Assembly (NCBI GenBank): GCA_040954595.2
Contig: CM082576.2
Span: forward strand, 1,433,403-1,497,402
DNA: 64,000 bases
Direction of reading: 5' to 3'
Origin: Balanoglossus misakiensis
Lineage: Eukaryota > Animalia > Hemichordata
This document shows, one piece after another, positions 8,001 to 44,441 of the stretch. Both the position numbers and the translations under genes were made by a program. Position 1 is the first letter of the stretch; every line of letters starts with the position of its first letter. Below the pieces are notes generated by a model. That model had not been told where the DNA came from. It saw only the letters and a program-made list of their open reading frames with translations, and ran no database searches.

Positions 8001-11000
8001 TGTGACGTAGTGAAGATATTCGACCACATTGATCTATCTGAGCTGTGATGTATTTATTCTGCAGATGGATCATTCCAGCTGTGTCTTGGTGTACGGTGAC
8101 TGACTCTACATCATATTCCATCATGTTACTGATCCCGTATGGTGATGCTTTTACTACCACTGTAATTACAGAAAGAAAATGCAAATTGTATTTCAGGAAT
8201 GCACCTGCTACAATTGATACACAAAATGAGTATCAAGACTGCACAACATTAGGATGGCCTATTATTTGATTAGTTATTAATAATTCCCATCAAGTCATCA
8301 AGCTGCAATATAAAGTTTTAATTATCATTTAAAACCCACCGTATCTGCCTTTCTTTGAAACTTCCGCTGATGATGTTGGTGATAATTTCTGCTTCTTCCT
8401 GGCTGGCTTATGTTTGTCACCTGTGTCTGGTAACGTCACCACTTCATTCCTGTCCCAACCGTGTGTGTTAATCACCAGAAATGATGGTTTTGTGCTGGTC
8501 TAGAAGAGTAATACACAGAACTGAATACAACTGAGAACCTTAACAAGATATTGTCTTAGTTGTCTGACAGCACAATGGTATTATGCCACAGCTGCCATCT
8601 TTGGTTACACTGACATTTACTACAGTGTTGTTAGAGGGGATCGGGGGCCAGAAGAAGATCAGAGGATTGTAATATTATAGCGGTGTTTCCTTCTGCCTGT
8701 GAATAATTAATTACCTTGTCAGTGATTGCTGCAAGTGCTGAGCACGCTTTTCTAAACTCTGCATTTGCTTTGACTTCAATCTCCTTGTAAATCCGGATGG
8801 CATCTTCTACAACCTGAAAATGGAGATGCGATGGGTAGGGTCACAATGTTAGCAGCACTGCATTGTGGGTTGGTGAATGTTGCCTCAGCACAAGTTGTGT
8901 CCATAGTTTGAAGATTGCATTGTGGGTTGGTGAATAACAACATCTATTATCAATATGCAATGTAAATAACTACATGTAGATACCTGATGCAAGACACTTA
9001 AAGATATTTAAGTGCAAAGAATATTTGAGACGTGAAACTGCCCAGATAAACTCAGAGTCTTACCAGTTCAATACAACTCCCTGGTAACACATCATGAAAT
9101 TGGTTCAGTAAGAAGTTCTTCCACATTTGAGAGAGTTCACTTTGAGGATACTTGTAAGATTTATTCTTAACCCAAGCAGCAGTTGATATAAATTCTAAGT
9201 TGTGTAACAGAAACTCCAGCTTTCTGTTGTACCACTTGATCTGAAAAGGAAAGTTATGTTGGCTAATTATTATTACAACTGACATGATATTCTAACTTTG
9301 ACTGGAAGCTTTTTACTCTCAGCTACAACCAATGCATGGTGAATATTATCTTAAAGTTTTGAGTATAGACTTGTGCAGTCAATGCAACGTATAACTCAGA
9401 TTTTTGTAGCAAATTAAACTGCTGAAAACACAATCGTAATTAACTTAATTGGACCTAAATCACTGTGTGATTACAACAGTACTACAGAAATAGTGTATCA
9501 TCAACTTTTTTTAATTTCACTCCCATCATAAACCAGTTGGTAATCATCTGTTGGATTCTGTTTACCTTGGCTTGTGAAGTAAAAGTGCCTTGATGTAATT
9601 CCAGGTACAATTCTCCAATCCATGAGCACAAATCATGCGAGTTCTTTTCCACCTCTTCAAAAAACATGTCAGGTGTTGACATGGTAACTCTACAGGCAAA
9701 AAAACGATTGTACAAATATTTTTACAAATATTTCATGAATAAAAGGTAACTTATTTCATCCTGTAGAAAAAAGGGAATTGTACAACTCACTTGGGTAAAC
9801 CATCCACATCCTTCAGCCTTTCAAGTCTTTCCAACATGTCCTCCCTGGAAAAAAATCCAAGATAACTTTCAGGTTTCACTGCCTTATCAAGCAGAAAAAT
9901 TGTGAAGACAGCAGTCCTCAATCTCTCCTACCCATCCTTTTTTCACTTCTTGTACCAAAAGCAACGGCATAAGGATGAAAAATATTCTGCTGGACTAATG
10001 TTTCTGCTAATCACAGTCTCTGCAACAACTAAATGTTCAACTGGATGGATTGGTGAAAACATTTTGAAAAGTCCATTCATTATTTTCCCAGTATGAAGTC
10101 AGTGAGTTTCATAGGTAATACTGTTTATTTCACGGAGAACTATTATCGCAATATTTAAACTTACGTAGGGCCTCCTCCACCGTCACCAAAACCATACAAC
10201 AACATTCCAGCATTGACCCTTCCTTTGTCTTTATTGTTGTCCAGGGTTTTTAGCAGCTGATGAGAAAACAAAAATAATTACACGTAATATGGGTACAACA
10301 GCAGGTTTAATATCAGGCCATATGAGCTCGGCTGTAATTTCGACAAGCTAAAGAAAGACAGACAAGATACTACGCTACTTTCACTATAGAAAGGCAAGAG
10401 AACCAGCAACAATAACAAGCAGATTGAGTAAAAATAATCAAGCTAGGTACACGTATACTCACATCTTCGACCTTACATTCCAAACCATAATTATCACCAG
10501 GTGGGAAATGTGCCAGTGTCTTCGATCCATCAATTCCTTCCCATAGGAAAGTATTATGCTATGTATAAGAAATATCAAAATATTGAGCAACTTTGTATTT
10601 TGTATATTTTAATGATCCATGAGCGCAGACCATTTACTCAAACACTGTGTTTTGATTATTCTAATAGTGACATATGTATGTAATGGAGAACAAAATACTT
10701 ACAGGGAATTTGTTGACAAGATTCCAACTGAGTTTCTGAGTGACAAATCTTTGAATACCGGCACTATTCATGATCTGAGGCAACTGTGCTGAATAACCAA
10801 ATGTGTCTGGTAACCAAAACTACAAAAGAACAAGAATAATCAGAAAGTTCTCCCATTAGAATTCAAACATTGTTCACCATTTTACTTTTCAGGTTCATTG
10901 GTGTAGAGCACATGTGATTCCTTGTTCAGATTTCTGTAGTAACATTCAAACTCACCTCTTTACATTTGACTCCAAATTCCTTCTGAAAGAACTTTTGTCC

Positions 11001-14000
11001 AAAAAGAAACTGTCTGACAAAAGATTCTCCACTGGGGACATTACCATCCATTTCAACCCAACATCCACCAACTGGAATGAACTGCTTTGCTTTGATCTTC
11101 TTCTTAATCCTCTCATACAGACTGGGGTAGTTTGTTTTCACCCATTCAAACTGCTGAGCCTATATTGGAAGAATTCAATTTATTTCACACACAAAATAGA
11201 CAACACCGTGATCTAAGCTTGAATGCTTGTGCAAATTATGCGACCGAAAGAACTGAAATATCAATTCAGTACATGATGTACCTGCGGTGTTAATAAAACT
11301 GGAAGTAATTCTAAAAAAAGATTTGGATCTATAATTATGATGCCTACAAACTATTTTTGTATATTTTCCCAGCTTTTATCAACCATCAAAAATCACTAGA
11401 AAGCGATATTTCTGAAAGCCTACACTTTTTCAAGCCAGTGGTGTCATGTGGCAATAAACACTACAATTGAAGGCCTTCGCCAGAAAAGTATGAGGAGAAT
11501 AACTGACCTGTGAGCACACAAATGTATATTCTGGATACGCATCCATTAATCTGAGTGAAGCTGACCACGCCCTTGCACATTTCCTCTTAGTTTCATCATA
11601 CGGCCATAACCATGCTGTTAACACAAAATACCAAAGATGCCATACAGAATCGTTTCATTCAACTATGACACATCAGTTTCCAACACCAACCCAGAAAGGT
11701 GCCTTTAGCATATGGACACAGTGTAGAATAAGAAATCTCCTGGATCACATTCTCAGACCCTACAAAGCAAAGTTCATGGCAATTGGATGAAAATGACACC
11801 ATGGCCAAAGCAGAATTCTTCTTGTCCTTGTATTGGCACTGTACTCAGACTGGACTTACCAGAGTCAATGTGACAGTGGCCCATAGCATGCACTGTATGT
11901 TGGCTATCACCATTTCTTTCAGAGAAGAATCTTCTTGCTATCTGGTGAGCTTCCTTGTACGTATCACGATTACCGATTTTACAAATATTGACCATCTTGT
12001 TTGCAGTATACAAAGCTTGGAATGCTCTTTGGTTTTCGTCCGGTAAGTTCTGCAAAAAGAGTATCAAGGAAACCATGCTCATGTTTGATCAGAATTGTTA
12101 CATTTTATATCAATTACACTGTATAACTATTAAACTACAAAATTAATGTTTTCTGAAATTTCATATCCCATATTCTCTGCTTACCTTTACCATGTCAATA
12201 AGAAGTTCAAAATCTCTGATAAGGTCATAAACATCTCTGTCAAAAATGGCAATCTCTGCAGTTGATAATGTATACTGTTTCTTTTCATCTGGTGGATTGA
12301 TCAGTCCATTGCCACCACCAAACATTCCATTACACGCCATCTCCATGTAGATCAACTGCCTGAAATGGAAAATTGCCATGGATGTAAAACATCATCAACA
12401 GTGTAGAACCAACACATCAATGTAATGAATCACAGGCATGCTAAGGAATGCTTTATCCCTATGAAAACCTTATGAAAATGTTCAATTGAGCTACATGTAT
12501 TATATGGCATATACCTTAGTTCATTCTTGGTAAGATTTCGAGTCAAAATAAAATCTTTCCTGTGTTGGCAGTCCCCACTCAGACCTTGTAGTGGTTCGCC
12601 ATCCTGCCACACCTACAAAGTGAAGAAATGCAATGGAAGAATGGCACACAATTATTGGTGGTTGTACGAAGAATGACACAGCTATTACTCAATTTGTTTT
12701 CTGTTCAATAGCCCATCACAACCAAACAACGGTAAACGTACCATAGCTTCTGATCCTGAATCCCATACAAGTCTGACTTCCTCTCCGATCCATTTCTCGG
12801 GAATCTTGATTTCTATCTTAAACCAGTGGGTAGACCACCTGCCAGAAAATAAGTGAGATTTCAACAGTTGTTTGTACATTGAGGGGGTAATGGTAAATGT
12901 GATGAATATTAATGGCAAGCTATCTGTACATGTTACACTGTTATATCAAAACACTGCCCTGAAACCCAAAAGGTCATTATATAAAAGAACACAAAACTCA
13001 CAGTGGCCCAAATGATTCTCCAATCTTGGTGTCAGAGAAATGTCTCTTGTATGCTTCATGGTGAGGAATTCTATCGGCTGTAGCAAAGTGTTTTAGCCCT
13101 GTAATCTGAATCTTCTCTGGGTATAGCCTGAAAGATTATAAATACAGCATACAATCCTGCAACCCAAATGTCTTTATACAGGAGTCTAAACCTCCACTTG
13201 AGTTAAAGTGAGATCAAACCCACAAATTAAATGGTCCTATTTTATACAAATTTTAGTAAGTTTCAGGAAGTGTGGTTTCCACTACATAATTGTTCAACAT
13301 TCCTCGAAAGTCACTTTGAGCAATGTTTGCATTACTTATTCACGCACTGACATCGTATTGAATGCGTGTGCAACAAAGGTTGTAATTTATTAACTGCATC
13401 TGTTTAGTGATTTATGATTTTTTATGAACAATCAAACTGTCAATCAAAAAATCACATGAACAATGAAACTCACTCAAATTCTATTGCTGATAAGATTATA
13501 TCTAAATTATGTGACAGTAGAGATATATTAAAGTATGTCAAAGGTCATCCAAAAATTTTGAGACAAATCCTGATCCCAATCAGTAAAGAACATTGTGTAC
13601 CAGTATTACAGATGATGAAATATTAGAGAAAGTTGTCACCTAAAAATATGTCCCAATAAATGTACCTGCAAAGATACTAGTTACTCAAAATTACAAATAC
13701 AATGTAATCATTTACACATAATTGCAAAAAATTACAAATATGCCACACCTACTCAACTTTTGGTATATTATAAAAAGACCTGCAAGGTTGCCTCAAATTT
13801 GATATACCCACAATTCTTTGCGAGTTTTAAGCTAGATAGCTAGATAAGACCCCCCCCCCCCTCCCCTTCCCCGGTAATTGCCCCCCGGCCCTACATGAAG
13901 GGACAGTGGTCATCCCAACAGGCGTCTGTCGAGTGTTTTCTGGTTGTATTAATAAACACGCGCTAGTATTATAGTACATGTACTTCGGACAGGCAGTCCG

Positions 14001-15071: not shown

Positions 15072-18000
15072 ATGGGCAACACTTCAGGGAAGGGAAAAGA
15101 TGGCCCTCCAATGTCACCCAAGGAGTCGCCAAACACTTTTGACTTTAAACCTGGTCATACTCATTTGATACAGCAAAGCAGTTATGAAGATTTCGATTTT
15201 TCTTCAAGGGTAAGTAGAAAATGTTTTTGAAAAGGGTGTTTATTTCAGTGGGAGCTTTTTCATGCATCTGACATAATGTATCATTCATATTTACAACCCG
15301 TTTTCTGCTAAGGTTGCGATTTGACTTCCTGCCAAGTCAATAAAAGACATTACTTACCCTGGATGCCAATTTCTGATGTTTCAGTAATATTCCAGTTTCC
15401 ATTACTTGCATCATTATAGGATGGTCATCGACCTCGAGCCAGTACTATATCCCAGTCAACGCTGCCTGCCTTGCAGTCCAGTGCACTGCCTACTGTCTTT
15501 CACTGGGAAGGAAATGCCAAAACAGTCTACATTTCAGGAACATTTAATAATTGGGAGAAAAAGATACCCATGGTGAAAAGGTAAGCATTGGGTAAATGGT
15601 AATTAATTGTCTGGTGGGGAGGGGAGGCCAGGGTCTGTGAGGGAGAGACAGGGGAGATAGATACAGAAACTGGTCATAGGAGAGGAAAGAATATGTTTGT
15701 GTAAAAAAACAACTACATGATTGTTGAAGGAAGGGGGTTAAATAATCCGCAGGCATTTGTTCTGAGTTTAATCTTTTTTGTAACATACACATTTTCATGT
15801 CTTTATTTTGTCAACAGATGCTTCTACTAAGATAACCTGATACATTTTTCTGACTAAAGTTAAGAACTGCATACAAATTATATATGCTGCTTTTGTTTAC
15901 AGCCATGGTGATTTCACAGTTATACTTGATCTAGCAGAAGGCGAACACCAGTACAAATTCCATGTGGATGGGGGCTGGGTTCATGATCATACCATGGTAA
16001 GTCAATAGCATTAGTATAAGTAACTACTGTTTTGACATTTTTTTTCTGTCTGAAAACTGGTCAGCAGATGATAGGCTATTACAACTTGACCAAAAATGTG
16101 TCTTTCCCAGAGGTACATGAAACTTTTTTTAGGATTATGGCTACCTGGAAAAAATGTAATCTTTTCGAGACAACCCTTTGTTCTTAAATATACCGATACT
16201 CACTTTTACTGTTGTTTTGTGTGCAGCCGACTTGTGTCAATGAGTATGGTTCCTACAACAATGTTGTCAAAGTACACAAGTCCGATTTTGAAGTCTTTGA
16301 AGCGCTGGCCATTGATTCAGTCAACAGTGGTAATTCTCCGAAAGGTAAGATTTGGTTTGTAATCGTAAAAAACAAACAACAAGCAACAACAACAATCTTG
16401 ATGTTGAAATGGTTTTACATGTACTTCTGGTGGAGGTGATACTTGATGTTGACATGTACAACACCATGTGCAGGCTTGCTTCAGTGCTTGACTGGATTAA
16501 TAACACCACTGTGCAAATGTGCGTTCAATGGTCAATTTTGTCTGCATGCTGTGTTGTCATTGTCATTGTCAGTTGTCTATATCAGCAGCACTCAATGTAC
16601 ATGTACTTGCAAGAATTCACATTCAATGGATATATTCAGGCGTCGTACAGGGGAATGATCAGATCATTCTTTTCACCAACAAAGCTCACATGTTGTGAAT
16701 TTTTTTATTCTTTTTCAGTTACATCTTCAAGTTTGTTGACAGGTCATTACCATTTATCATTTTCAAATGTTTGAACATCTCATCTGAAATATTGGTGACT
16801 TCACGTTCATACCGAGTCTCATGGTTGTATATCTCTGAAGGCTACCATTTCATCCAATACGCATGAAGTGGCTGTCTTATTTTTTGTTTTTGTTTTTCTT
16901 TTGTGTTGTCATAAACAATATGTGCAGTCATATGTCTGTTGGAAAATTCTATATGTAGCACCTAATAAGATTTAGAATTCAAAGAATGTGTTTGCATTGG
17001 CTTTGCATTTTCATGTCTGCTGTGGGTTTTTTCCAAACACTAGATGCAGTGTATCTCCAGTTCTATCAAACCATGCTAACCCTCACATGCACAGTGTCTC
17101 ATTCTACATTAACATCATGCTGGTTTTCAGCCCAGGTAACTCAAAGCTTGCAGCTTCAGACACTTTGAGAACACAGTAAACACACACCCCCCCCCCCCCC
17201 CCCATCACAAGGTTTTGTAAAGGATAATCTCAGTAGGTGTGGGGATACTGTGCATCTCTGCTAAATTGAACAACTCTAACAGAACCAGTAACACTGTGAT
17301 TGTTAAAATATGCCACTCATTATTAATCACCAATTCAAGCAAATTGCAACCATGGGATTCTGAACAGCAAACTTACCATATTACACAAAACAAGAGTGCA
17401 ACTTTAAAATCAAACCAGAGCAAGGTGTGAACTGTGCAAGAAATGTCAGAGAAACCAGCACTATGCTAAGTAGAATGACCATCATCGTCATCCTCATTAC
17501 CGTCATACACCAGACCTATCCTAGACTTTCTTGATGTGCAAAGGAGTGTGTGTATCTTCTGCCTCAGTTTTGACAACTCCTTTGCATGCCTTTAGAATCC
17601 ATAGTGTTCTCTTGGGATTGCTCGATGGCAAACGTCATAGGAGTATTTTAGCTTTGTGTACTGTTAGTGTTGTGTTCAACAGCAGTGCAGCAGTTTACTC
17701 CACTTGGTGTTTGTGTTAGATGATATGCAGTGTGAAAAGTAGTCATGAGAGGGGAGAGAAGAAATAGTAGACAGGGAGGGGTGGAAGGGGAGGGCTGTCT
17801 GACGTCAAATGTCATGTGTCATACTTCAAGCATGGACAATCTCCTCTGTTAGTAAATGCAGTGTGTACATATTCTTTCTGCACCGTATACATGTGTATAA
17901 ATCAGAACATGAAACTAATTCACCTTCAAAGGGGGAAAATGCAAAGGAATTCAAACATACACCAAAACCTCATTGATCAAGCATTTCAAGGTCTACAGTG

Positions 18001-21000
18001 AATACGGTTGATATTATTGTGGTTAGGTGAATTAAGTTGTCTCCAAGAAATGTGTTTCGTGAATCCAAGTCTTTGATTAGTGAAATATTTTCATGTTCTG
18101 CTAAACCTACTCTGAAATGAAGATGGTATGTATAAACTGTTGTTGCATGTTGACTTTTCTCAGATGTGTCTGGGTCCCCTCCCGGTGACTACACTCAAGA
18201 TATGCCTTCAAGAAAACTACAGGAGAAAACCACAGGTCCCCCAATTCTACCTCCACATTTGCTTCAAGTTATTCTCAACAAAGATATTGCACTGCAGGTA
18301 TGTCACCATACTGGTAATAGAGCATTCCAGTGAAATATAAGTTCTACATGTCAGTATTTTGACATGTGATGTGATCTTGATTTTTGTGTCTATCATTTCT
18401 TTTGCAGTGTGAGCCTTCATTACTCCCAGAACCTAACCATGTCATGTTGAATCATCTGTATGCATTATCGATAAAGGTAAGTCTCTCTAGAAATGTTCAA
18501 TGCAATTAACACCTGGCACGCTGTGATATTTCTAATGAAGTACACTTAGTGTGTGTTGATAATAACTATATCTTCTCCCACAGCCATTAATGCAGAGGTG
18601 AATGTACCCTAACATTGGTGTCAGTTTGGATAACGAGATCAGTATACACCTTAGAGAATGAGTATACACATTGACTAGCCACGAGGGTAACAGCATACGT
18701 TTATGTCCCCGGGGAACTGTTAGTCGCCCCTAAAAGGACTATTTCAGGCAACTCATCATCTCACAGTCAGGATCAAGAGGACATAAACATTTGTTGTTAC
18801 ATGAATATGGCCAGTCAATATGTGTTTTAATAACACACCTCATCTGAAAGTAGCATAAATTGGGAAATTTCTCTGCAGGCAACATCGCCATCTTAGTTTA
18901 CATTTTCTGGAGTGCACATGCAGCCTTCCAACTCAGCCAGGCAACAGTCTTTGGAACTGTTGCCTGAGAAGGTTAACAGTTTTGAAAACAGTAACTCCTC
19001 TTTGTGTCTATCAGCGCCAAATTGGCAAATCACAACACAGATTATGGATGAGGTGTGTTATAATGTCAGATGTTGCCTCATAGTTTGAGCAACAATAATC
19101 TTCTTTTATTGCGCTTGCATATTTAGGGATGGCAAGTAACTTGGCTCAACTATACACAAACCAACATTTTGAAATTCAAAATGGTCGCCAAGTGACATTG
19201 CAAAAAAACAACACATTCATCTATCTCTGAGAAAAGCAGTTTCATGCATATACACATTCTTCTCAAGTACTGTGTTTTTCAATGTGAACGAGCAAGACAA
19301 AGTACACTTCTGATGTAAAAAAAACCTTTGATATTAAAGTTGCATAGGTATCTGTCTGCATAAGCTTATTGTTCTGTGCAGTAATATTAATCTGACAATT
19401 CCTGGCATAACAGTACGTGTGGCTCTTGCTGTACAATGAGTGTCGTTTGAGTATTTGTTTTCCAATGAAATGGTGTATGCTGTGTTTAAATGTGTGTTCA
19501 GTTCACCAGTGGCATGGGTACATACTGTCTAGTAGTACTGTAGTATTTTCTGAATGTTGCCTGATGTTTTGTGGGTCCTGTCTTCTTCCACTCTCTGTTG
19601 CATCGCACAACGCATGCCAGCCAGCTCTTTTACACTTTGCTGACTCTAAAGTTTAATGATGCCACTGCCAATCTCCTCCCCCCAGCTGTGTTCAGTGCTG
19701 TGAATTTGGAGTTAGCACTTTTAGGATGTTTTGGTCCGATGTTCTCTGATGTCCTGATGCCTTCGTTTCCCAAACACTCTCACCCCTCTTTACAGGACGG
19801 CGTTATGGCACTTAGTGCAACTCATCGTTTTAAGAAGAAATTTGTCACCACATTATTCTACAAGCCAATTTAAAGATAGGAAACCAATATGGTTTGTGGC
19901 ATTATAATCTCTGTTCATTCTATCATCTTTTTGTTGTTGCTGTTTTGTTTTTTGCAACTATTGAGTGATTTTGCTTGTTTCAGGATGGTGTCATGGCTCT
20001 GAGTATTACGCAACGCTATCGGAAGAAATTCGTCACCACCTTGCTGTATAGACCCATTTGAGGAAATCCACGGAAAGAACTTGATATTCATTCATGTATA
20101 CATTTTATTCTGAAGGACTGTGACAGACATATCAAAAATATGAAGCTCCTGGATAGATTTTTTTACATAATGAAGTTATTTTAATGTGAACACTTATTTT
20201 GAATTTTAGTCCGACTCGAAGCAAAGCATGCACTTATACATAAGCATTGGAAATGTTACTGGTGTGTATTATGTATGTGTGTTAGTATATCAGTGGTCTG
20301 GAGTGTTGATTTCCAAACAAACAACTTTCATCATGGGGTCAAAGTGATGTCTGCAAATTGCAAATCGTTGATAATACCAAGAATTGTGGAACCCATCTTA
20401 ACCTTGTCAAAAATGTTGTCTCTAAAATATCATTTACATTAAATGTTGTGTGGATGGTAATTCTATGTGTGATCTTGAAAATACCTATTGTGCTACAACT
20501 CCATTGCATGATGGAATTTTCCTAGAGTGTGACCTCTGACCTTGCATTAATAATTTTAAAAGTCAGTAGTTAGTTGGGGCCCAAATTATTGCATCGTTTA
20601 ATTGTTATGAGATCATAAAGTAATCATGTGCCATTTCTTTGTAAGGTTGTCATAGTGATGAAGTAAAAGAGAAAACTAGTTTCCATTGCAAGACACAAGA
20701 CTTTTTAAAATTTTCAGTTAGTGTAACATGTCCTCATCATTCAGAGTTGCCATCAGAGTATGGTACATTTTGCTGCAGCAGTAATCATTTGAGGACAGTG
20801 TTTGTCTGACCATGTAGTTTTAGTCGTGCCTCTGATGAATTTTAAATAGCGTCAAAACATCCAGAAATTCTTAGTTTATTTTAGATTGATCTTTCATGGA
20901 TGTTTTATAAATTTTAAAGTAAGACATTGCAAATTTAACTGTTGTGATGTCATCAGTATTAAGGCATGTACCCACCATGACTTGTTCTTGTACATGACAG

Positions 21001-22507
21001 TCTTTTTCTTATGATTTTATTATTAAAGTATATTATTTCTTAACAGCTTGCTTGTTTCTGTGTTAACATCATCATTTTTCATTTTCTGTTCTGCTTCAAT
21101 TACTCTTTGTGCTTAATATGTCTGTTCAGTCAGGTCTAGACTGCAGCTTTTCATTTTGTTTCATAATTTTATTTTCAAGTAGATTTTGTATTTTTTTATC
21201 CTTTGTCATGACCCTTTCTAGATTTTCACCACTTCACTAAAAAGAGAAAGGTTGGTTTGACTGGTTTTGTCATTTCTGTCCGTATGACACTTGACACCTC
21301 TTACACAGAGAAAGTCATGGGATCAAGATATTCTTTCTGTTCCCACAATTTCTGTTACTAGTAATAGTAGTATTTAATCTTTATCAAGCCTTTCAAAGAG
21401 TTTTGCCACTGTCTTAAATAAATTTAATGATATTTGGTTGCTGAAAATTATTTCCAGTCAAACCAAACCAACTCTTCAGGGAACTACAACGAAATCACTC
21501 TAAAACAGGATTTATTGTTTTGTTTTTATTTACGACACAAAGAATAAAGTTACCTACCATCTAAGTAATTTTTTTTCTCCATTTGCTGTGTTAGTGTTTG
21601 TTAATCTATTCTTACTTCTACTAATATACTTTTATATTGTCTCTGCATTTCTGAAGGTAAGATCTTGGATGTCACTGACTACCAAAGAGTAATGAAATGG
21701 TAGTTGTGTGTATTTATTGCAGGACCAAACCCCTGTATAATAGCCTTGTGTCATAAATAGATGTCATCGATAATTAATGACATCACAGAAACTGCATTTT
21801 TTTCCATTGCATGACAAATGAAGGTTTTGATTTACTTACAACATCAGAAAATCGTATTGGAAGTTCAAAATGCTAATCATGTGACAAGCAAATTTGAAAA
21901 GAAAGAGGCTGTCAGCTTTTTTGGAAAGAAAAAAAAGTTGCTAATTATATTAATTAGCATAGACAATACAGGGCAATCATTACACCTCCTTGTAAGTGTG
22001 TCCATTCAAATTATTTAAAACTTAAATGTGCCATATTTAGTATATCTGTATCTTTTTATTGCATCTTTTTCTTTCTCGCAATGCACTTTTTCAAGAACTT
22101 TTCTATTTAACCTGTCCAACATCCTACAAGCACTCAGTTTTATTACTTTCACATGACAGTAACTTCCAACTTTATTTTCATAATTTGCATCAGAATGTAA
22201 TCTGTGAACGTGTCTCGTCAGGTTTGTCGTTGGACAGTTTTTAAATCACTGAAGATTTTAATACTAACCCCAAATATTATTACCCCAGCATGCACTCTTG
22301 AATTTCTACAACAATCATTGAATCATTTCTCTTGCGTATACTTGTTGTGAGCACCATAAAGGAGAGTTTGCCATGCTGCCCATGTCTTGAAGGAGGAATC
22401 TCTTTATGATTTTTTTGCAGGATGGTGTAATGGTGCTCAGCTCAACACAGCGCTATCGCAAGAAGTTTGTCACCACGGTATTTTACCGACCCATTTCTGA
22501 GAACTGA
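15072..22507 (+). CDS. PRKAB1: 5'-AMP-activated protein kinase subunit beta (PRKAB1/2 co-ortholog) with three alternative terminal exons
   Basis: Exons 15072-15209, 15420-15580, 15903-15996, 16227-16344, 18164-18297, 18408-18476, then one of 19796-19873, 19984-20061 or 22421-22507. MGNTS myristoylation start; glycogen-binding CBM (PTVFHW..GTFNNW..KSHGDF..GEHQYKFHVDGGW); DFEVFEALAID; SGSPPG; PPILPPHLLQVILNKD; EPSLLPEPNHVMLNHLYALSIK. Confidence 0.96.
18830..19061. mobile_element. MITE-like element with 15-bp terminal inverted repeats, in a PRKAB intron
   Basis: ataacacacctcatc (18830-18844) and its exact reverse complement gatgaggtgtgttat (19047-19061). May be part of a larger repeat starting near 18640. 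Confidence 0.6.
19796..19873 (+). CDS. PRKAB1: AMPK beta alternative terminal exon A (DGVMALSATHRFKKKFVTTLFYKPI*)
   Basis: Pyrimidine-rich acceptor ..cctctttacag, phase 0 matching the donor after 18476; intact ORF to TAA. Confidence 0.88.
   Translation, partial: DGVMALSATHRFKKKFVTTLFYKPI
19984..20061 (+). CDS. PRKAB1: AMPK beta alternative terminal exon B (DGVMALSITQRYRKKFVTTLLYRPI*)
   Basis: Acceptor ..ttgcttgtttcag, phase 0, intact ORF to TGA; AATAAA at about 21417 and 21543. Confidence 0.88.
   Translation, partial: DGVMALSITQRYRKKFVTTLLYRPI
22421..22507 (+). CDS. PRKAB1: AMPK beta alternative terminal exon C (DGVMVLSSTQRYRKKFVTTVFYRPISEN*)
   Basis: Acceptor ..ttttttgcag, phase 0, intact ORF to TGA; AATAAA at about 24184. 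Confidence 0.88.
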   Translation, partial: DGVMVLSSTQRYRKKFVTTVFYRPISEN

Positions 22508-23551
22508 AACTTTACTCGCAAGACCTAGAGGAAAATGCATCCGCTCTAACACTTTTGCTACTGCAGTGCAGGTTTTTTTTGATGAATTTTCAAAAAACAT
22601 TGTGAATGTTTATTTATCAATGACAAAAACTCCTGCAGTAAAATGGAGAACTGTTGGAATAATTCATATACTTTGAATAGCATAGCCTAGAAGATGCAAT
22701 TTTTATTTACTCAAAAGAGGAAAATTTGCAATCAGCTGGTATATTTTAAACAGTACTGTGGACTTCTTTACTCAAGCAGAGTATTTTCTGTTGATGAGAT
22801 TAATACACATTTTTGGTTTGCAATGCAGTAATTTGTATCACATCTTTCTGTTCTAAACTGTATTGAGATAGAACGTAAGCATACATGATAAACAAGTCAT
22901 GAAAACCAAAATATTTCATTTTGCACACTTACCACATTAATGTCAAATGATATTTGTCAACTGGCTTTCAGTGTTTTCCTTGTATAAACTTGTTCAACAC
23001 GAAGCCTACACATGTAGATATTAAATGGGGAAAAGGGTCTTTCATAATTTTTGTCATATTGTATTTTGCCAAAAGGTACTTTCAAAACTATGTACGCTGT
23101 GATTGGTGAGGATATCTCATACATGAAACTGAGCATACAGGGAGATTTGTTATCAGCAATGTACTCATTTCATTTCATTGCTTTCTGCTAGACCATCATC
23201 AAATACTCAAAAGTTGGAAGACACTCCTGCAATCAGTCTATACATGATGGAGGCAACAACAAATCGGTTGCCACAGGTACATTTTACAATGCTATTACAG
23301 ATATTTTTATAAACCACCTTGTTGTAATTTTAATGATGGTTCTCCTAAAAGCAGAATTAGGTATTTCAAGAAAACAGTTGGTGAGTTTTGAAACCACACA
23401 ACTCATGATCAACTCAGGATTTAATCACTTATATTACGTGGTGCTAAATGGCTTTGTGATTGCTTTCGGCCTATCCAGTTTTAAAAGTTCAAAGGTTAGT
23501 GCAGAGGTAAAAGGCTACTGTTTATTAGCTCCCATGTTAGGAATAGCATTG

Positions 23552-23645
23552 TTAAACCCCTTCACCAACATGGTTCAGTCCAAACCCATTGTTTTTTATG
23601 GCAAAGGTGGACCTCTATAGGGGGAAATGGGGGTGATAGGGCTAA
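23552..23645. mobile_element. Second copy of the TTAA-bounded MITE-like repeat, in the presumed 3' UTR of PRKAB exon C
   Basis: ttaaaccccttcacc...ggggtgatagggctaa has inverted ends and internal similarity to 4937-5073. Confidence 0.6.
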
Positions 23646-24925
23646 TAGAGATGCTTAACTCCTGGCGTTCCCCATTGTTGGTTATATAACTTCAACAAAA
23701 AGTTTACAGATGTCAGAATGGGCCCAAGTGGTGTCCTTGAGCAGCAACCAATCTTTCAAACCACAGGTCTGGTTGGCTTACAACTTGTAAATGCTAGTTC
23801 ATAAAATGTTTGTGATGGTAAAATAACGTTTGTGTCATTTAGGTGTGAGAAAACCTTAATCTGTATATAGTAATTAGACTGCAAAAGCTGTACTACCAGT
23901 CTTGCATCTTTACTAAGAAACTTAGAGGTATATTAATACAATGTATATGAGCTTCATCTGTTGTACATGTACTAGTATTCTATCACCTGTAAGTCTCTGT
24001 CGAGTTCAAGACTTGTTTGCAATGAGGTAATACACAAGTCTTCTTCTGACTTACAGGATTGGGAATACAGCTTTGTTTTGGGTGTGTGATGTGGCCAGTA
24101 TTTTCCTCTATTCTTTTCCGTTCTGAAAGAGTCTGAATTTTTCAAAAATGGATTGTTCTGTATGCTCCTTCCCTTGCTGTATCAATAAAATTGATAAACA
24201 GTGAATTCTTCATATTGTGTGATCTCTATTGATAACCTTTTCAAAAGACCCCAGAGTTAAACCCCAGACAGCAATGTCACTGATGTTAATTCTGACGGGT
24301 CAAGAAATCAGACAATGGTGACTGTTGGTTGCCTTTATTGATATGGATAAATAGAAACTAGACAGGAATCAAGATTTCATCAAAGTAGTGAGTTAAGGTG
24401 GAGTTAACTTGATTTGACTTTTTTACATTTCAAACACAAGAACAAACTTGCAGTTCTCAAAGTACCCATATTGAATGTGGGGGGGACAAGAATTGTTTTT
24501 GGAATGATAATCTCTTTCCAGGTCGACTAGTGGAGATAAAAGAAAAGTTTCAGGACAAGAGCCAAGTTACCATGGTTACTGCAGTTACTATGGTTTGACT
24601 GCTTTTACAGAGAAAAAAAAGATGCCAGAAAACAACCCTGTTTGTTGACACAAAAGATTTGCTGGTTTTCCTTGACAACCACCTGTCATGATACACTCCA
24701 TCTTCTGTCAGTCATGGGATGACAATTGTGCGTATAGAAATCAAGGTTTTTTTTCAAATTTGAAAGTGAGCCTAGGCAGCACATCACACAAGCATAATTT
24801 TCCTTTAAAATCACTTCGTAATTTCACTTCCATTTGATCCAGTGGTATAAAATCTACCAAAAAAATTCTCACACAAAAACTAAGCAATACACCCTGATTT
24901 AATATGAAAATGCATAGCAGGTGGT

Positions 24926-28740: not shown

Positions 28741-31700
28741 TCACTTGTTTCTTCCTTTCTTGTTGGAAGGCTGCAATAAAAAAAAGAAAAGAATTGACAG
28801 TGAATTAAAAGTTTAAAGGAGAAACCATATCTGAGGTTTTGTGAGAATAAACTTGGTGACCCTTGAGGAGCCACTTTTCACAATCAGTGAAGAAAATCAT
28901 GATATTGATGGGAAAATGGAAAATTATACATTCTAACTTCTTAAAAAAATGTTTTTGTTTGCTATTTGGCTTATACATTGTTGACATTTTCAACATGGTT
29001 TTCCATAAAATATCACAGACTCATAGACACTGGCCTGAATAAACATCAACACACACCCCAGACACAGACACACACAGCCCTGTGTCTGTCATATTGTTTA
29101 CCTTGGACGTTGCTGTCATTTTCAATGCATCAATTTCATCTTTCTGAGATGTTAACTGTTCATTCATACTACAAAGATGATCACTCATCATACTCAGTTG
29201 GGATTCATAGCTACGAGTTGTTGTCTGAAGTTCATCCTGAAAATAAATCCAATGATAACGGTTGGAAAACATGATTCCAAATTTCTTAGGCAAACGAAAT
29301 TTTTTCCAGAAGGAATATAAATCATTGCAGTCCATCTAATGTAAATTTTCCCTTTGATGACAAAAAAATGGATAAGTGTTAGTTTCCATACTCCTGGCCT
29401 TACCTTTAGTTGTGCAATTTGTTGACTAGATGTGGCTATCTCTCCTTGAAGTTTTTCTTTTCCTTTGTCTGTTATATTAAGTCGTTTTTGCAATGCACGG
29501 CACTGAAAGTAACCATACAACAGTACAAAAAGGTTATAAATATGATGAGTTTGACCAAATTCAGAGCATTTTATTTTAATAGTTTTAATTTATGGCCTTA
29601 TGGAAAAATTCAATTGGTACCCCTGCCTTGAAAAACATTTTTTCTTCTTCGTCTTTCAGTTTTATCACCAGGAAGGTTCATATTGTTGTCTGTAGTCAAA
29701 TGGTTTGTTCCATCCACTATACAAGACAATAGGAAGGTTATATAGCAATCCAAATGAAGTGCCCATGGACCAATAGATTGAGGTCTGTGTTGACCTTGCG
29801 TTGTTTTGGAATAAGTATGAAAGTGGATGTCATTATTTGAATAATATGAATCAAATGACATTTGGAAACACTCCTCACTAAGTACACACACAGTTACACT
29901 AAAAGCCCTGATATAATGAACTCCATTCTGCTAGCAGTTCATTATTATATATCTACTTAGGTTTTGGATTGTATTATCTGAAATAAAAGTATTCATAGTA
30001 CACCTTCCCAGCCTTATTCAGTGTAGTGCATGGCTCATTCTTATAATACCAAAAAATTATGTTGGATTTAAGGCAGAAAACATCCATTAAAGAAGTATGG
30101 AAGAAACCAAGTTGTGGAAGGGGGTTCGGGTTGTGAGCCGTTTTAAAGGTTGAAACAAAGTAACTGTTTTACGATCATATGAAATGTTATAGGATCACCT
30201 ATGCCATCAGTGGGGTTAAATACAGAAAGTTTTATGTTCCACTAAAAGCAACAAAAGAGTAGAGAGCATGGAGACATTGTTAATAATGCTCTCACCCATG
30301 ATTGAGCTTCTAATAGAGTACACTGACTCAGATTAGTGCATTGACCAGATAGAAAAGTACAAAACTCTTGTTAAACGATGTCTTTCAACCCTGGGATTTG
30401 CACTCCGGGAATTCTAGTGGGCAGATTTCAACTGAGTCTGACATTAATTGCTTGTAAAGTACACGTAGTCAGAATAATTCAATACTACTATTTTAGATTT
30501 CCTCCTAACCATGCAGTGCATATTGCCTTGTGTCATACTGCCATGTCTAAAAACAAAAAAACGAAGACAGACAGACAGACTCACTGATATCAGAATGCAG
30601 AAATAATCTGTATGGTAATTGTCCTTATGACAGCCGGTCTGACATTGTACAAATAGACTGAGCGTGAAATGTGTATTCTGATGATGTCATGTCTCAGAGG
30701 ATAAAAAGTCCTTGCCATTAGATAGTCTGCAGGGGAAGGCGAAGGTACTTTCCACTTTGTGTCAATGCTCTGAACGTAATTACGACAGGGGAAGGCCTTA
30801 TTACTTTAGCTTTGGCGTAAATGCAGTGGGAAGGACCATACTGCTATGTACATTATCTGGTAATACCGCTGTGTAAATTCATCAACCCAGAAAAAATTCA
30901 GAAAATCGACGAATGTCAATAAAATGACGGCTTTAAGGTCATACAATTGTTGAGAAATATTGTTACATTTAGGGTGGGAGAGAACTAAATTCTTGATCTG
31001 CTGAAACAACAGGCGAAACATTTCTTTCTAATTTAAAATATTGGATTATAAAAAGACGATGTTGGGGTAGACAGTTCCCAAATGGTACGTCAAATAATCA
31101 TTTTTCCTCCGTTTTTCAAGATATCCCTGTGTACTAATCTATTGATCCACTATGAATATGCCTCTCTTCAATGGAATGCCCTATAAAATTTGGTTTCAAC
31201 AGTCTGACTATAGCCTGAGGGATCGGAACAACCGCCCAGGCCATTACCATAGTAACACAGTTGAAAACATCACAGTGGAACATACCATTTGTAGGGGAGG
31301 AAGACCATGTCATTTGGGTCTGCTTGACTTTTGCTTCAATATAATTAAACATGAAACTGATGCTTGCCCTTCAAGCGACCTGGTTTGTGGGTCATGTCAA
31401 GCAAGGCAAGGTCATTTGTATGATTAATTGTAGTGTGGTCTGATACCTCAATCTCTTGGTCTAATTGAAACAGCTGCTTAATTCTTGTCCCAGAACTGTG
31501 ACCTAGGAAGGTATGATTGAGAGAACATGACCCACAAAAACAACACATATATGTCATTAATGATGCTTGTCACACTTGTTCAAGATTTTAAGGGTGAAAG
31601 TGGTCTAATTCTTCCTCCAAGGACCCTTTGGACCCTGACCTGACCTTGAACCTGGGGGTGGGGGAGGGCAAAAGCGACCATAGCGAGACACATTGTCACC

Positions 31701-34700
31701 ACAAAATACATGCACATTCAATTTTGCTTTTAATTTTAGACCTGACTTTATAGAGATGGACCAAAATCCTCACCTGCATATGATACCTGTATCATGGACA
31801 GAAATAAGACCAAATGCCGACATGAAAGAATCTGAGTATGAAAAATTAATATCTTCACAGGAGTAGAGGCCAGCCTTGGCAATGTTCAATTTTACTTGCT
31901 AATAAAATTTACATTTTTGAATGATTATGTAATTCATTTAATGATTATATAATAATGAAGTATGCTGGGGCTCAAAAACTTGTACGGTTTCTTCAAACTC
32001 CGACCCCATCCAACATAGTGGTCTGGCTGGCACACATAAAGGTGACCCAGTTTATCCTTTGTGTAAATGGGCCATTCCATTTTGTTTGTCCTGCTACCAA
32101 CCCGATATCTAATGGAACGGTCTGACTGCTGTCCTTCAACTAACCTTTGTTGCAGGGTAGAAAAAAGGGTCTGTGGTAAAAAAAAAGTACAGCTTGGCTT
32201 CAAATACGCGTCTGATGTCACTGCCCCCGAAGAAGAAGAAACATTATGGAGACAAACAATTCACGCAGTGCAGTCTCTTTTCGCTGAAGTTTTCTCTAGC
32301 CTAACTTACCTGATATATTACTCGAAAAAGCAAAGTTTCCCAGAAGATTTTTTAAAACCAAAAATGACAGTGACAAAAATCACTACAAACAATGAATAAA
32401 ATATACAAGATCCATAAAGGTACTTGCAGACTAATTTCAGCTCCCATACATAATAAATTATAACAGGATATTAATAGTTTGACAATAAATTCACTGAACA
32501 GATCAATGAATTTACAAATATTTCCCATGATTCCCTGAAGGACACACCAACCTTTGATTGCCCAAAGCTAAATGTGGCCTACGACCTAGTTACGTGTGTC
32601 CTACGGCCGGGATACAACCTAGACATATGACACGACAGTCTATCTTGGCACCTTGCGTATCTGAGACAAAAAGGTTGACAAACTCTGTTCACTTTCACCA
32701 TATATGACCTCAATCATAAAATAGATATGATGGCAACAGACTTTCTGCAATTAGAATAGTCTCTAAAGTGCATTTAACTCAGGTCAGATAGATTCCAGTG
32801 CAAGCTGTGTTTAACTAATAGTCTGGAAAGTGATTCATGATGTAATGGGAGCGATGGAGAATGAATATGAAGTGTGCCTCACAGAAACAGTATACCTGCA
32901 GCAGTATACACCCTGTCCCTTGAATGAACTCATAATGTACCATTAGGAATGAACCCTGTATTCTGGTTTGTAGTCTATCAGAAAATTTATCAGCTAGATG
33001 ACACTAACGAACATACACACAGCCATCACCTGAAGACATCTTTTGTATCCAATAACATGATAATGTATCAGGTTTTATCGCTTGAATAGCTGTTTGTAGT
33101 TTTACCCATATAATCAATAATTTACACGACAGCTGCATCTGACCCTTTAACCTCCTGTAACATTGTCATTCTGATATTTTCTGGATCAAAGCAGCAGAAA
33201 ATCATTTGTATATCTCTGTTCTTGATGTGTGTCTTCTCACAGTCTAATGCTACGTCAGATTATGTACAGAGAAGAATTTCACTCCTTCATGTCAGTTACT
33301 CCTACATACATGTACATTAATGTCACAATTCCACATTTGAAATTTTCAGAATGGAATGAAAATTCCTTGGACCCTTTAGCTACTGTAAAAAGGCATTATT
33401 GACACAAATGACAAATGTGTATGTTGATACAGAACAGATCTAGGACAGTATAACCTGCTTTGTATGAGTCCTACATCTCTGTACTTCAGGCAAAACAGTT
33501 CTTGTGTCGTAAAGAATTATAGGAATAGGTTATAGGGGTGTCATATGCAATTAGAGGGCACACTGAACCTAGCCCTGGTTTTCTGCTGCCTTCGCTCAAA
33601 AACGAAGGCGGCCAAAAACTAGAGCTAGGCTACACTGATCCTAACTGCAGATACATGACATATTTGACATCAGACAAATATTACAATCCGTTAAAATTTA
33701 ATATCAAAGCTATGCTGACAGAGTTTCAAGTTTCCTGGTTTGCATGACAATCGAAACGCTGGAAAGCCAATGAATTAAGCAGAAGTAGGTTGGATATATT
33801 AAACCTTTTTAAAGCAGTGATTCATGCCCAAGCTAATGACTTATGTCTACAACACGAAAGGAAAGTAGGTTGTTTTCAATTTAATATTCATGCTAATCTG
33901 CATTTAAGTTGAATAACCTAGCATGTCTGTGGCTAATGCTTTTCAGATACAGGCCTCATTGTGATGAACTTTGGGTGTGTCACCAAAATCATCATTGCAC
34001 GAGGCTGACTGATTTTTACATTTACGTTGAGTCACTAGAAAACATTCATTGATCACAGCTCTTTCTCAGTCGATTTTTATTCTGAAAACCCAGAAGATTG
34101 TCTGACTTTTGTAAATGAAAGGAGAGAAAAGATGATCGGCTCATTCTTACATCATTATTATTTAACTCCTCCCTTTGACTGGCCTGGGACTACTCTGTGC
34201 ATGAATACGCTTGAAGCACAATTACTGTCTGGGTTCTTTTTCAATGCAGGGGCTGCAAAGCGTCCAGGGTGTCTGGAAAATTAGATGAATGTCATGGATA
34301 CTCGATTTCATTCAAAGATACTTTATTTTGAGGTCAGTCAACATTTCAAAAGATATAGATGTGTGTTTTTCAGAACGAAATGGAGCCACACTTGTTTTGT
34401 AAAAAGCATGTCAGGTTTCACCTTCCCCACGGTGGAATAAACCTATACAATAAGAGGGATCACAGCATTTGCGGGAAATATACTATTTATAGGGGGGTTC
34501 AGGTTGTGACGGTCAACCAGTGAAGCTGATTTTCTCAGGTTACATGACTCCAGGTCGGTCATGACAAGGACATCAACCTGACAATACACCTACTGTCATG
34601 GATGGCTGTGATTCACAGCTGAGGGATTGGGATTTTACAAACACTGGGAACAAGATTCATCCAGAGAGGAAAGCCAGGAATAAAGGGGATTACTGTCAAA

Positions 34701-37700
34701 AACCCCTCCAAGTTTACACCATCCATCCCTATGCATAAGTGGTTGAACCTTGCCCTACATATGCTAATTTCTCAGAGTGATGTCATACAAGGCTTCCACT
34801 CCATCATTGGACCAATCCCTAATAGGTTAACATTCTGGGTAACTGGAGTATATGGGCCAACTCAGCTCATTTGACTACAAGAGATGTGTCAACGTGTGGC
34901 CTAAAATGAGACAAGACTACACCAGAACTGGGCTAGGCCAATTGATAGCAACACAATTCAGTCAAACTAAATGGAATTAGAGCTTCCACCCTGACTTGTT
35001 GCATTAACTAGGTTAGGGAATTGTGCAATGGTTACATTGCAAATAATACTGACATAATATAACTGTGAATTTTATTCCTAGACTAGGATTGTTACAGCTG
35101 CTTCTAAAGACACATTTGAATGGAATCTGTGATACATTTATGGATATACATGTAAGGTCCTGTTGATGTTCATGTACCTATAATAAAAGTGTTTTCACTT
35201 CACATAAGTTGATACACCAATTCCCATCTCCAAAAAAAAATATCAAGTCATTTTTAATGACATAGTCCCCACTGGATTAATAGATTAGGAAAACATTGGA
35301 GGAATGTCTAAGACAAAGTTTCCAACAAAGTTTTTAGTTTGAATTAAAATGGTTCAGGCATGTCCAATGAACTGCTTCAGACACTTACAAAATGGCCGCC
35401 CATCAGCCACATTGGATCACTTCGCAACACCATCATAGTGCACTGGTCCTGTATCGAATTTGAATGAAAGTGGTCCAAGCATGTCTGAGTAATGGCTGGG
35501 TACAGAGGGACAGATGGACAGAACCCAATGTATTAGTCCCTCATACTTCACCTGCAGGGACTAAACAGTGTTCCACAAAAGTCAAATCCAGAAAGGACAA
35601 GATAAACATTGTTTTACCCAAACTAATTAACTCATGTTCCAATAATAGTATGAAAGTGGTAGCAAATGAAATTCTTTTTTGGGATCATCCCTACAGCTGC
35701 TACAGGATATAGAGTGGTAAGTGCCAAAAAATAGAGGTCAAGTATACCTGGTACTTGACACACTTTGATCATGGTTAATAATAGTTCACTGATTGAACTC
35801 AGTGACCTAAATAGTTCTGTCTTCCTTGACTTACTTGCTATGCAAAGAGCTGATGTTCTTACTCATGTTACCATATTTGGAAAGATGATGTCATGCATAC
35901 AATTAAACTTCCTATTGTTAGGTATTTCATTACTTGATGACAATGGCAATGGTTTGGTCACTGTACTATACATTTTCCATAAGTAACCAACCATGCCTCA
36001 GATACGCCTTCACTATCTCTGAAAAATGTTCTCTAACATCATATGGACCAATCACAGCAAGTGATACAAATTTCCTCTGTGAGCATACATCAGAGGTTTA
36101 AATTGGAGGGACCGTTGATATTGGACAATTATGACAAAAAACATTTTCAACCAAAAACGGCTGTCAGTGAATAACAATCTCGCAACAGTCAATTTGCCCC
36201 CCCCCCCCCCCCCTTAAAAATCTTCGCAGTGGAACTTGACCTGCAAACTCTACACTAACAGAGTGGTGCAAGCTCAAAAACAAAAGAAACACAGAATTGA
36301 ACACTGCTGGCAGACTATTGAAGTTTTGTAAAATCTGTTTAGCTAGAAATTATTCACAGACATTACAAATAGGCTTTCTGACCACCACATGGTCAGAACA
36401 CCAAGGAAATATCTGCGAGTTGGAGTAGGAGAACTTTAAAAGTTTCATGGTTCTTCAACTGTTCAATGATTACAATGGAATATATCAACAACATACACAG
36501 AAACCAATATAACAACAACCAGATATAGGTTCCCTGAATTTTGACACTATGACCATTCTTTATTACTCATCATCAAGCAGTGTGTTAATGAATTGTTAGT
36601 CATCAACCAGGGTCATCAACGGTCAAACTAATGGTCATTGCACTTAGACAGTGGTCAGTCAACTCTCCACTTGGTCATTCACCTTTCCCACCAGGATGTT
36701 GACCTTTTCCCGGCTGGTCAGTCACATTTCAGGATGGCCATCTCCTTGAGGTTCAGTAAATGGAATGTTCCAAGTACAGACATTGGTTGAGCTTCCCTAA
36801 TTTCCTAATGGAATGTTCTACATTTAAATAAATAATCACACAATTTAACGGTTGAGAGAACACCATGATAGTAATTAAAAAGTGGTGCAGAACATTCAAT
36901 TGGGAGTCAAGTTCTATAAAAATGTTCTTCTGTATAAATCAATTCTATTAACATGAAGAGCTTCAAGCTTACTGCATCCTTGCACAGTTTCCTGTTTGAA
37001 ATTATTCATGGGAAAGCTACATCATATACCGGTATATGTTTTTTGGTTGTACATCTGTCAGACCTAGCTGTCACATGGTCATTGTCAATGTTTCAAAATT
37101 GACAAAACCACAGATGGCTATTCCATGATTGAGACTGCACCACATTGTCTGAATACAAAAGCAGCCAAGAGTGTCTTAACCCCGAATGAGCTGTTCCCAG
37201 GCACTGAGATTGCTTACATGCCAGACACCACAGGCAAATGACGGGAATTCATTATCCAACACGGGTTCTATTGATTATTTTTGCATCACAAAGAGTTGGT
37301 CCTATAATCTGTCTGGCACAGTAGGAAAGTGTATGCTGCATTGTCAGACATCAATTAGGCCAGTGGCTATCAAACAAAAGTGATCTTTTTATTTTCTCTG
37401 TTCATTACTTTTATCAGCTGCTGAATATCACATATTTGGATTTTTTTTAAAAATGGTACACAATCCATTTTCTAGTACATAAAAATCCATGATGGATCTA
37501 TGTGGGGGAATGACAAATGCAAGAAATGGATGGCAAATAACTGATGACAATTTCTGAAGAATTCTCAGCTTTTTCAAGGTTGGAAATTCCCTCGCACCCC
37601 TGTTAGTGAAATGGGCAACACCATTGAAAATGGTTTGATCCAGAATAGCATGATGATTGATCAAACAAGGGCCAACGGTTACTAAGGAATCACCCCTATT

Positions 37701-44166: not shown

Positions 44167-44441
44167 ACTTCTGAACACCTTTCTTGTGTTTTCCGGTATT
44201 GAAACGAAAAGAATGTTTTATCTGTAGATAGTGGTGAGACTTTTTAAAAGTCAAACTCCTCACTACCGACAGTAGACGTCCATTTTGAATATATTAACTT
44301 TCAAAGGAATTCTGGGAAACTATCAGCTGTAAGGACAAGGCTGAGCTGAAAGTTGCACGTGTGTTTTTGACTGTCATCCAAAAAAGTCACTGCTAATATC
44401 TCCGGTATCACAAGTACTTTAATTGACCGAGAGTTCGTGAA
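44167..44441. promoter_or_regulatory. Compact bidirectional promoter PPP1R21 / TMEM223
   Basis: Start codons diverge with only 275 bp between them. E-box CACGTG at about 44356, TTCTGGGAA at about 44310, and a YY1-like AAATGGCG spanning the TMEM223 ATG. Confidence 0.6.

Follow-up and report, generated by a model that had tools for sequence, protein, structure and literature searches.

The window analysed here, 64,000 nucleotides from the acorn worm Balanoglossus misakiensis (GenBank assembly GCA_040954595.2, contig CM082576.2, positions 1,433,403 to 1,497,402 of the forward strand), contains a gene for the beta subunit of AMPK, in which the last coding exon is present in three tandem copies, referred to below as A, B and C. 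Upstream of them, six coding exons bounded by GT and AG form a 238-codon open frame on the plus strand that ends at a phase-0 donor. Joined to end A, B or C, this shared body encodes 263, 263 and 266 amino acids, respectively, with the frame uninterrupted each time. The coding exons are as follows.

15072..15209, plus strand: AMPK beta coding exon 1, with an ATG (Met-Gly start) and a GT donor; 75% identity with Ptychodera flava residues 1-48
15420..15580, plus strand: AMPK beta coding exon 2, in which the carbohydrate-binding module (CBM) begins
15903..15996, plus strand: AMPK beta coding exon 3, CBM; one copy in the window
16227..16344, plus strand: AMPK beta coding exon 4, end of the CBM and a helix; one copy in the window
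18164..18297, plus strand: AMPK beta coding exon 5, beta linker and beginning of the PF04739 interaction domain
18408..18476, plus strand: AMPK beta coding exon 6, common to all three ends; phase-0 donor AAG|gtaagt after 18476
19796..19873, plus strand: last exon copy A, 25 amino acids and a stop; acceptor tttacag|19796
19984..20061, plus strand: last exon copy B, 25 amino acids and a stop; acceptor gtttcag|19984
22421..22507, plus strand: last exon copy C, 28 amino acids, including a three-residue tail, and a stop; acceptor tttgcag|22421

A first-pass annotation of this DNA had described one donor, after position 18476, facing three phase-0 acceptors at 19796, 19984 and 22421, each of which opens a complete exon; coordinates, phases and translations were all confirmed. 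A and B agree at 19 of 25 residues, with different codons at 12 of these 19; our recount returned exactly the figures given earlier. The corresponding values are 18 of 25 (11 with different codons) for A and C and 21 of 25 (11) for B and C. When each copy was compared with the 64-kb window by tblastn, exactly A, B and C were matched (E of about 1e-15 or better; next E, 0.058), and no fourth copy was found in the window. The flanks, said to lack obvious similarity, are unrelated: in 60-base comparisons, 21-23 of 60 positions match upstream, where the pyrimidine tracts lie, and 16-17 of 60 match downstream. Similarity stops at the exon edges, so that the repeat unit common to the copies is the exon with only about 9 bases of the acceptor. 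The gene has the layout of tandem duplicated exons, with homologous last exons that share one phase and have intact acceptors and stops.

The best PDB matches are AMPK beta chains. Exon 5 finds its best matches in the beta subunits of Ptychodera flava (93%), Saccoglossus kowalevskii (84%) and Glandiceps talaboti (82%), and the shared body is identical at 212 of 238 positions to that of Ptychodera, at 190 of 232 to that of Saccoglossus and at 189 of 235 to that of Glandiceps. PF16561 (CBM) followed by PF04739 (alpha/gamma interaction), the domain order of AMPK beta, was found in all three Ptychodera isoforms. No duplicates of exon 3 or exon 4 were found within the 64-kb window. The Glandiceps and Saccoglossus models contain an optional serine-rich insert of 7-8 residues after exon 4, in two versions in Glandiceps; among 29 candidate micro-exons checked in the window intron 16345-18163, no counterpart was recognised.

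The copies were compared by the Nei-Gojobori method. The proportion of synonymous differences (pS) was 0.85 for A-B, 0.77 for A-C and 0.75 for B-C, at which the synonymous sites are saturated, while the proportion of nonsynonymous differences (pN) was 0.13, 0.16 and 0.09, respectively (Fisher p for synonymous versus nonsynonymous, 4e-8, 2e-6 and 7e-8). In three runs of a neutral simulation, none of 20,000 random mutants per run combined an open frame with the observed amino acid identity at the observed base distance, which excludes chance or neutral decay. Saturated synonymous sites, low pN and the outcome of the simulation together establish that A, B and C are old copies and that selection acted on the protein. 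The proposal of an old exon triplication under purifying selection thus held, both by the contrast between pS (0.75-0.85) and pN (0.09-0.16), a comparison suggested in advance, and by the retention of the copies in related species (see below). The order of duplication is given conflicting signals by shared states: A and B share A250, A and C share F266, and the ptychoderid B and C copies share Q255 and R268 (residue numbers are those of human beta1, counted back from residue 270).

RefSeq proteins of two other acorn worms end in the same three ways. Ptychodera flava has three isoforms (XP_070577408-410) that differ in the last exon only and match A, B and C of the window, and the six isoforms of Glandiceps talaboti (XP_077994715-763) have three different ends that cover A, B and C. 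End A (Ptychodera XP_070577410; Glandiceps XP_077994763 and XP_077994731) is the same at all 25 residues in the three species, against 80-89% identity across the shared body. The B orthologues (Ptychodera XP_070577409, Glandiceps XP_077994747) differ between species at 3, 4 and 5 of 25 residues. End C has 0 of 25 differences from Ptychodera XP_070577408 and 5 of 25 from Glandiceps XP_077994715/723/754, one inserted residue of the Glandiceps C having been dropped before this comparison; all C ends carry a short tail starting with Ser-Glu or Ser-Asp. In a tree of the 25 peptide columns, whose bootstrap had not settled, the B copies formed one group (98/98) and the A copies were three identical rows. 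The Saccoglossus model, from an 11-kb contig, ends at or runs past the exon 6 donor and lacks the last exon, so that it is uninformative. Had the extra copies been frameshifted or missing in relatives, the triplication as first proposed would have failed; instead, the A, B and C ends are intact in the isoforms of both Ptychodera and Glandiceps.

Glandiceps is a spengelid, and A, B and C are therefore found in two acorn-worm families, the Ptychoderidae and Spengelidae, which are sister families (PMC11175523). Since a ptychoderid and a spengelid both have the three ends, the triplication predates the split of the two families. The separation of Ptychodera and Schizocardium has been put at more than 370 million years (PMC11175523). 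For the harrimaniid-ptychoderid split, which is deeper, the hemichordate genome paper arrives at 373 million years (PMC4729200), and we therefore take about 370 million years as an upper bound for the split of the families.

Among the matches listed, three homologous ends occurred in 2 of 26 species isoform sets, both from acorn worms, and a single end was found in all 24 others (four species of sea urchin, one brachiopod, one nemertean, two insects and 16 molluscs). These sets were assembled by hand from cluster listings, four of which included 15 of 17, 15 of 28, 15 of 28 and 15 of 22 members, and same-species isoforms in other clusters could be missed; models that stop short of the exon or whose ends are non-homologous (P0253, P0326, P0369, P0034 and Saccoglossus) were left out. 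Starfish, brittle-star and crinoid entries had one model each among the matches listed, and the named matches included no amphioxus, tunicate, pterobranch or Schizocardium protein. In 72 metagenome loci a second full copy was seen in none (70 had one match and 2 an intron-split exon), a weak control in that the segment is a separate exon in only 11 of the 72 and many have short flanks. The horseshoe crabs Limulus and Tachypleus have two beta proteins each, encoded on different contigs and differing at 86 positions. One has the canonical end and the other has S/T253, Q255, V265 and F266, the set of the ptychoderid C, a possible convergence and one pointer to function.

The beta subunit's C-terminal domain is sandwiched between the alpha C-terminal domain and gamma, and stabilises the activation loop (PMC6274893). 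It is a three-stranded antiparallel sheet, and its third strand touches a strand of gamma by way of T263 and Y267 (PMC11752127). In an AlphaFold2 model of the Ptychodera B isoform, the last exon forms a two-strand hairpin (residues 243-252 and 255-264) and the best structural matches are AMPK beta chains. The published structure and the two-strand model agree with the earlier assignment of this segment to strands of the beta scaffold that tethers alpha and gamma, and identify them as its final strands, the last two of the three-stranded sheet.

We compared the nine acorn-worm copies with a background of 347 non-hemichordate proteins. These remained from 387 after removal of 11 hemichordate proteins, 24 lacking the anchor and 5 whose ends were short or non-homologous; they comprise 40 distinct sequences and are biased to arthropods and molluscs. 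V248, S252, R256, T263, Y267 and P269 are kept in 9/9 acorn-worm copies and in 347/347 background proteins. Thus, the gamma-binding pair T263 and Y267, by which an AMPK beta end can be recognised, is present in every copy. The modal animal sequence, however, is kept by none of the nine copies, each of which departs from it at 5-8 sites (A at 5). The type-specific changes are V250A, Y257F and L266F in A; V250A, A253I, H255Q and K268R in B; and A253S, L265V and L266F together with the short tail in C. Several states of the acorn-worm copies are rare in the 347 background proteins (V250A, 0; A253I, 0; K268R, 1; Y261F, 1; L266F, 3), and A250 does occur in 5 full-match metagenome loci. If the turn is a simple one of two residues, V250 would be the cross-strand neighbour of Y267 and L265 would lie between T263 and Y267, with 253, 255, 266 and 268 on the opposite side. 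On this assumed geometry, the type-specific changes would touch both faces of the hairpin.

The intervals around the three copies contain the following features relevant to their splicing and 3' ends.

19874..19983, plus strand: 110-base spacer from the A stop to the B acceptor; presumably 3' untranslated region (UTR) in A transcripts and intronic for B and C
20438..21548, plus strand: candidate poly(A) signals of A and B transcripts (ATTAAA at 20438 and 21022; AATAAA at 21417 and 21543)
23020..24189, plus strand: candidate poly(A) signals of C (ATTAAA at 23020, AATAAA at 24184)

None of 12 poly(A) hexamers tested is present in the 110-base spacer, and A and B are therefore probably competing 3' splice sites of a single terminal exon, without separate poly(A) sites, while C would be the distal last exon. 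As every copy ends in a stop of its own, a special exclusion device would be unnecessary. The acceptors differ: among eight in the gene, the AG-free zone is longest at A (69 bases), which has two branch-like motifs, and shortest at B (16 bases), which has no YTRAY branch motif within 100 bases. The earlier claim that one gene makes three beta subunits differing only at the interface gained from the three-end isoforms annotated in two relatives; as regards the 3' ends, A and B are improbable as separate exons each with its own poly(A) end, no hexamer lying between them. Between B and C, at 21620-21662, a long pyrimidine-rich tract that ends in AAG is directly followed by GTAAG, resembling a recursive splice point or a UTR donor. 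Such 7-mers are expected by chance 0.11 times in the region, which is not significant; this donor, if used, could join the A/B UTRs to C.

These observations suggest the following scheme. The shared exon 6 donor is likely to be joined to one of A, B and C at a time, which would yield three beta subunits from one gene. A and B would compete as acceptors, with A transcripts reading through B as UTR, and C would serve as a separate last exon further downstream, polyadenylated at a site of its own. As T263 and Y267 are kept in all copies, every end is expected to assemble. The alpha-beta-gamma core is predicted to be the same with all three beta forms except for slight differences in packing, and the type-specific changes may alter core stability, turnover or the coupling of gamma to the kinase, probably by cell type or stage. 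We regard it as very probable that all three ends are real, selected isoforms. That they are alternative last exons of AMPK beta whose protein differences tune the heterotrimer core is the reading that we favour, with rather less assurance. A choice by the ends among alpha or gamma paralogues is possible but unsupported. Reviews describe a single gene per AMPK subunit in invertebrates and trace the isoforms to vertebrate genome duplications (PMC11752127, PMC4995730), and tuning of one core is therefore more economical than partner choice.

Several observations weigh against tuning of the core by the three ends. The hairpin has a predicted local distance difference test (pLDDT) score of only about 61-65 in the monomer model. 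End B drifts between species (3-5 of 25 residues) and in Ptychodera or Glandiceps alters T254 and V262, two positions that never or hardly vary among the 347 background proteins; this drift fits relaxed constraint as well as tuning. Most of the changes are conservative, and backbone-paired strands may tolerate such changes. S253 and Q255 are the sole state in many crustacean-like sequences and may simply be tolerated. The 25-column tree does not unite the C copies (34% of bootstrap trees). In 20 motif-by-region tests for splicing-regulator motifs, one gave p 0.03 (GCATG, B-C interval), not significant after 20 tests, and none of the 25 longest among 98 inverted-repeat pairs joins one upstream element to the three acceptors in a docking/selector pairing. 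Finally, the three-end isoforms of Ptychodera and Glandiceps are automatic RefSeq models; RefSeq alternative isoforms are normally built on transcript alignments.

Much of this would also be accounted for if the three ends were equal as proteins and selection concerned the choice of 3' end, through UTR length, stability or location of the mRNA, or dosage by cell type; the amino acid differences would then be tolerated drift, fixed after the copies had split an ancestral expression pattern. The different 3' UTRs and poly(A) candidates of the ends agree with this account, as do the gamma-binding residues in every copy, the mostly conservative changes and the fact that some states, such as S253 with Q255, are other animals' only end. 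Drift alone is nevertheless hard to square with type-specific residues fixed across two families and with an A end that is identical in three species yet lies 5 sites off the animal consensus, and one of the two horseshoe-crab beta genes reached the ptychoderid C set S/T253-Q255-V265-F266. We consider this explanation rather unlikely.

Less probable still is an arrangement in which A is the working subunit and B, perhaps also C, is specialised for weak binding or for an alternative partner, reducing AMPK activity or joining another alpha or gamma isoform. The B copies depart from the most conserved positions, with A253I in all three species and T254S/I and V262T in two, and B is the fastest-evolving end; the Glandiceps C carries an inserted residue at the turn of the hairpin. 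On the other hand, T263, Y267, R256 and P269 are present in all B copies, and the PF04739 score of Ptychodera B is 95 bits versus 102 for A. Lastly, that one copy is used and the others are unexpressed relics, the RefSeq isoforms stemming from protein alignments and not from transcripts, is very improbable: the short AG-free zone of B (16 bases) and its lack of YTRAY within 100 bases would fit a relic, but synonymous sites are saturated, pN is low and orthologues of all three copies exist in two families, and unused exons would not have survived so long.

The favoured reading, tuning of the core by alternative last exons, places the gene within a known splicing class, and the three-end AMPK beta gene is likely a case of tandem duplicated exon substitution, all three ends being used in the RefSeq models of two relatives. 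Martinez-Gomez et al. (PMC9741552) count 77 C-terminal cases among 236 human events of this kind and describe tropomyosin genes (TPM1, fly Tm1 and worm lev-11) that have three 3' exons in tandem. The acorn-worm gene resembles their class in having tandem homologous last exons, interchangeable C-termini, great age, conservative changes and key binding residues kept, the last described there for the Cacophony/Ca-beta interface. It differs in that the AMPK exon forms core strands of a heterotrimer that is obligate, while the terminal cases of that study show an enrichment of tails that are exposed, coiled-coil, membrane or disordered. In PMC9741552, the main text contains 0 mentions of PRKAB or AMPK, one supplementary file of PMC8373072, by the same authors, gave 0 matches to PRKAB1, PRKAB2, PRKAA and PRKAG, and the available text of PMC3905731 and PMC7866021 holds nothing specific to the variable positions. 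The first-pass annotation knew of no description of an AMPK beta last-exon triplication, and our search of the literature for alternative last exons of AMPK beta, whose reach left out most subscription papers, likewise found none. The splicing class is known; its occurrence in AMPK beta, within a near-invariant assembly core, was not found in print. The Ptychodera and Glandiceps isoforms, in which a common body is followed by the A, B or C end, are labelled only 'isoform X1...', and our literature search turned up no discussion of them.

An analogy had also been drawn with vertebrates, in which PRKAB1 and PRKAB2 (ohnologues of the 2R, or two-round, genome duplication) likewise provide several beta forms per animal with the same domain order and fold. 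This analogy proved weak. Vertebrates use two genes that vary mainly elsewhere, the PDB beta1 and beta2 chains differing at 1 of 25 last-exon residues, whereas the single acorn-worm gene varies this segment only, by 4-7 of 25 residues between copies. The segment varied in acorn worms is thus the one that scarcely differs between vertebrate beta1 and beta2, and an invertebrate deuterostome appears to obtain three beta forms from one gene, in contrast to the account of AMPK diversity by vertebrate duplications. The ends would be natural, long-selected core variants with 4-7 substitutions on an otherwise identical protein, with which the alternatives of a passive scaffold and a tuning point can be tested simply.

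Pairs of RefSeq beta isoforms in lophotrochozoans (Lingula, scallops, clams, mussels and oyster) contain homologous blocks of the same length with 9-16 substitutions. These blocks, known from proteins alone, correspond to exon 3 and/or exon 4 of the window (CBM), and the four beta isoforms of Ruditapes are the 2 x 2 combinations of the exon 3 and exon 4 blocks. As in acorn worms, one beta gene has homologous alternative blocks, as from tandem duplicated exons; the lophotrochozoan blocks are internal and the acorn-worm ones terminal, exons 3 and 4 of the window being single-copy. Judged from the proteins, the blocks look like duplicated exons of the glycogen-binding module that are spliced in a mutually exclusive manner, and they would be independent of the duplication in acorn worms. 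We offer only tentatively, as an idea whose truth we rather doubt, that invertebrates with a single beta gene still make several AMPK complexes, the gene having been diversified more than once by exon duplication. Acorn worms would swap a near-invariant core hairpin, giving heterotrimers that differ in assembly or nucleotide sensing by cell, a C-like state would have arisen independently in a horseshoe-crab paralogue, and molluscs and brachiopods would swap CBM exons.

The following genes neighbour the AMPK beta gene in the window.

9485-12945, minus strand: exons of a family 38 alpha-mannosidase (PF01074, PF22907), head to head with the AMPK beta gene
29021-42949, minus strand: PPP1R21 (PF10212, PF21636), downstream of AMPK beta
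44427-45535, plus strand: TMEM70/186/223-family gene (PF06979), downstream
50726-51256, minus strand: acidic exon without a Pfam match, downstream

The alpha-mannosidase gene is presumably MAN2C1-like. The acidic exon appears to resemble the C-terminus of FoxN2/3, and FOXN2 and PPP1R21 are linked in humans.

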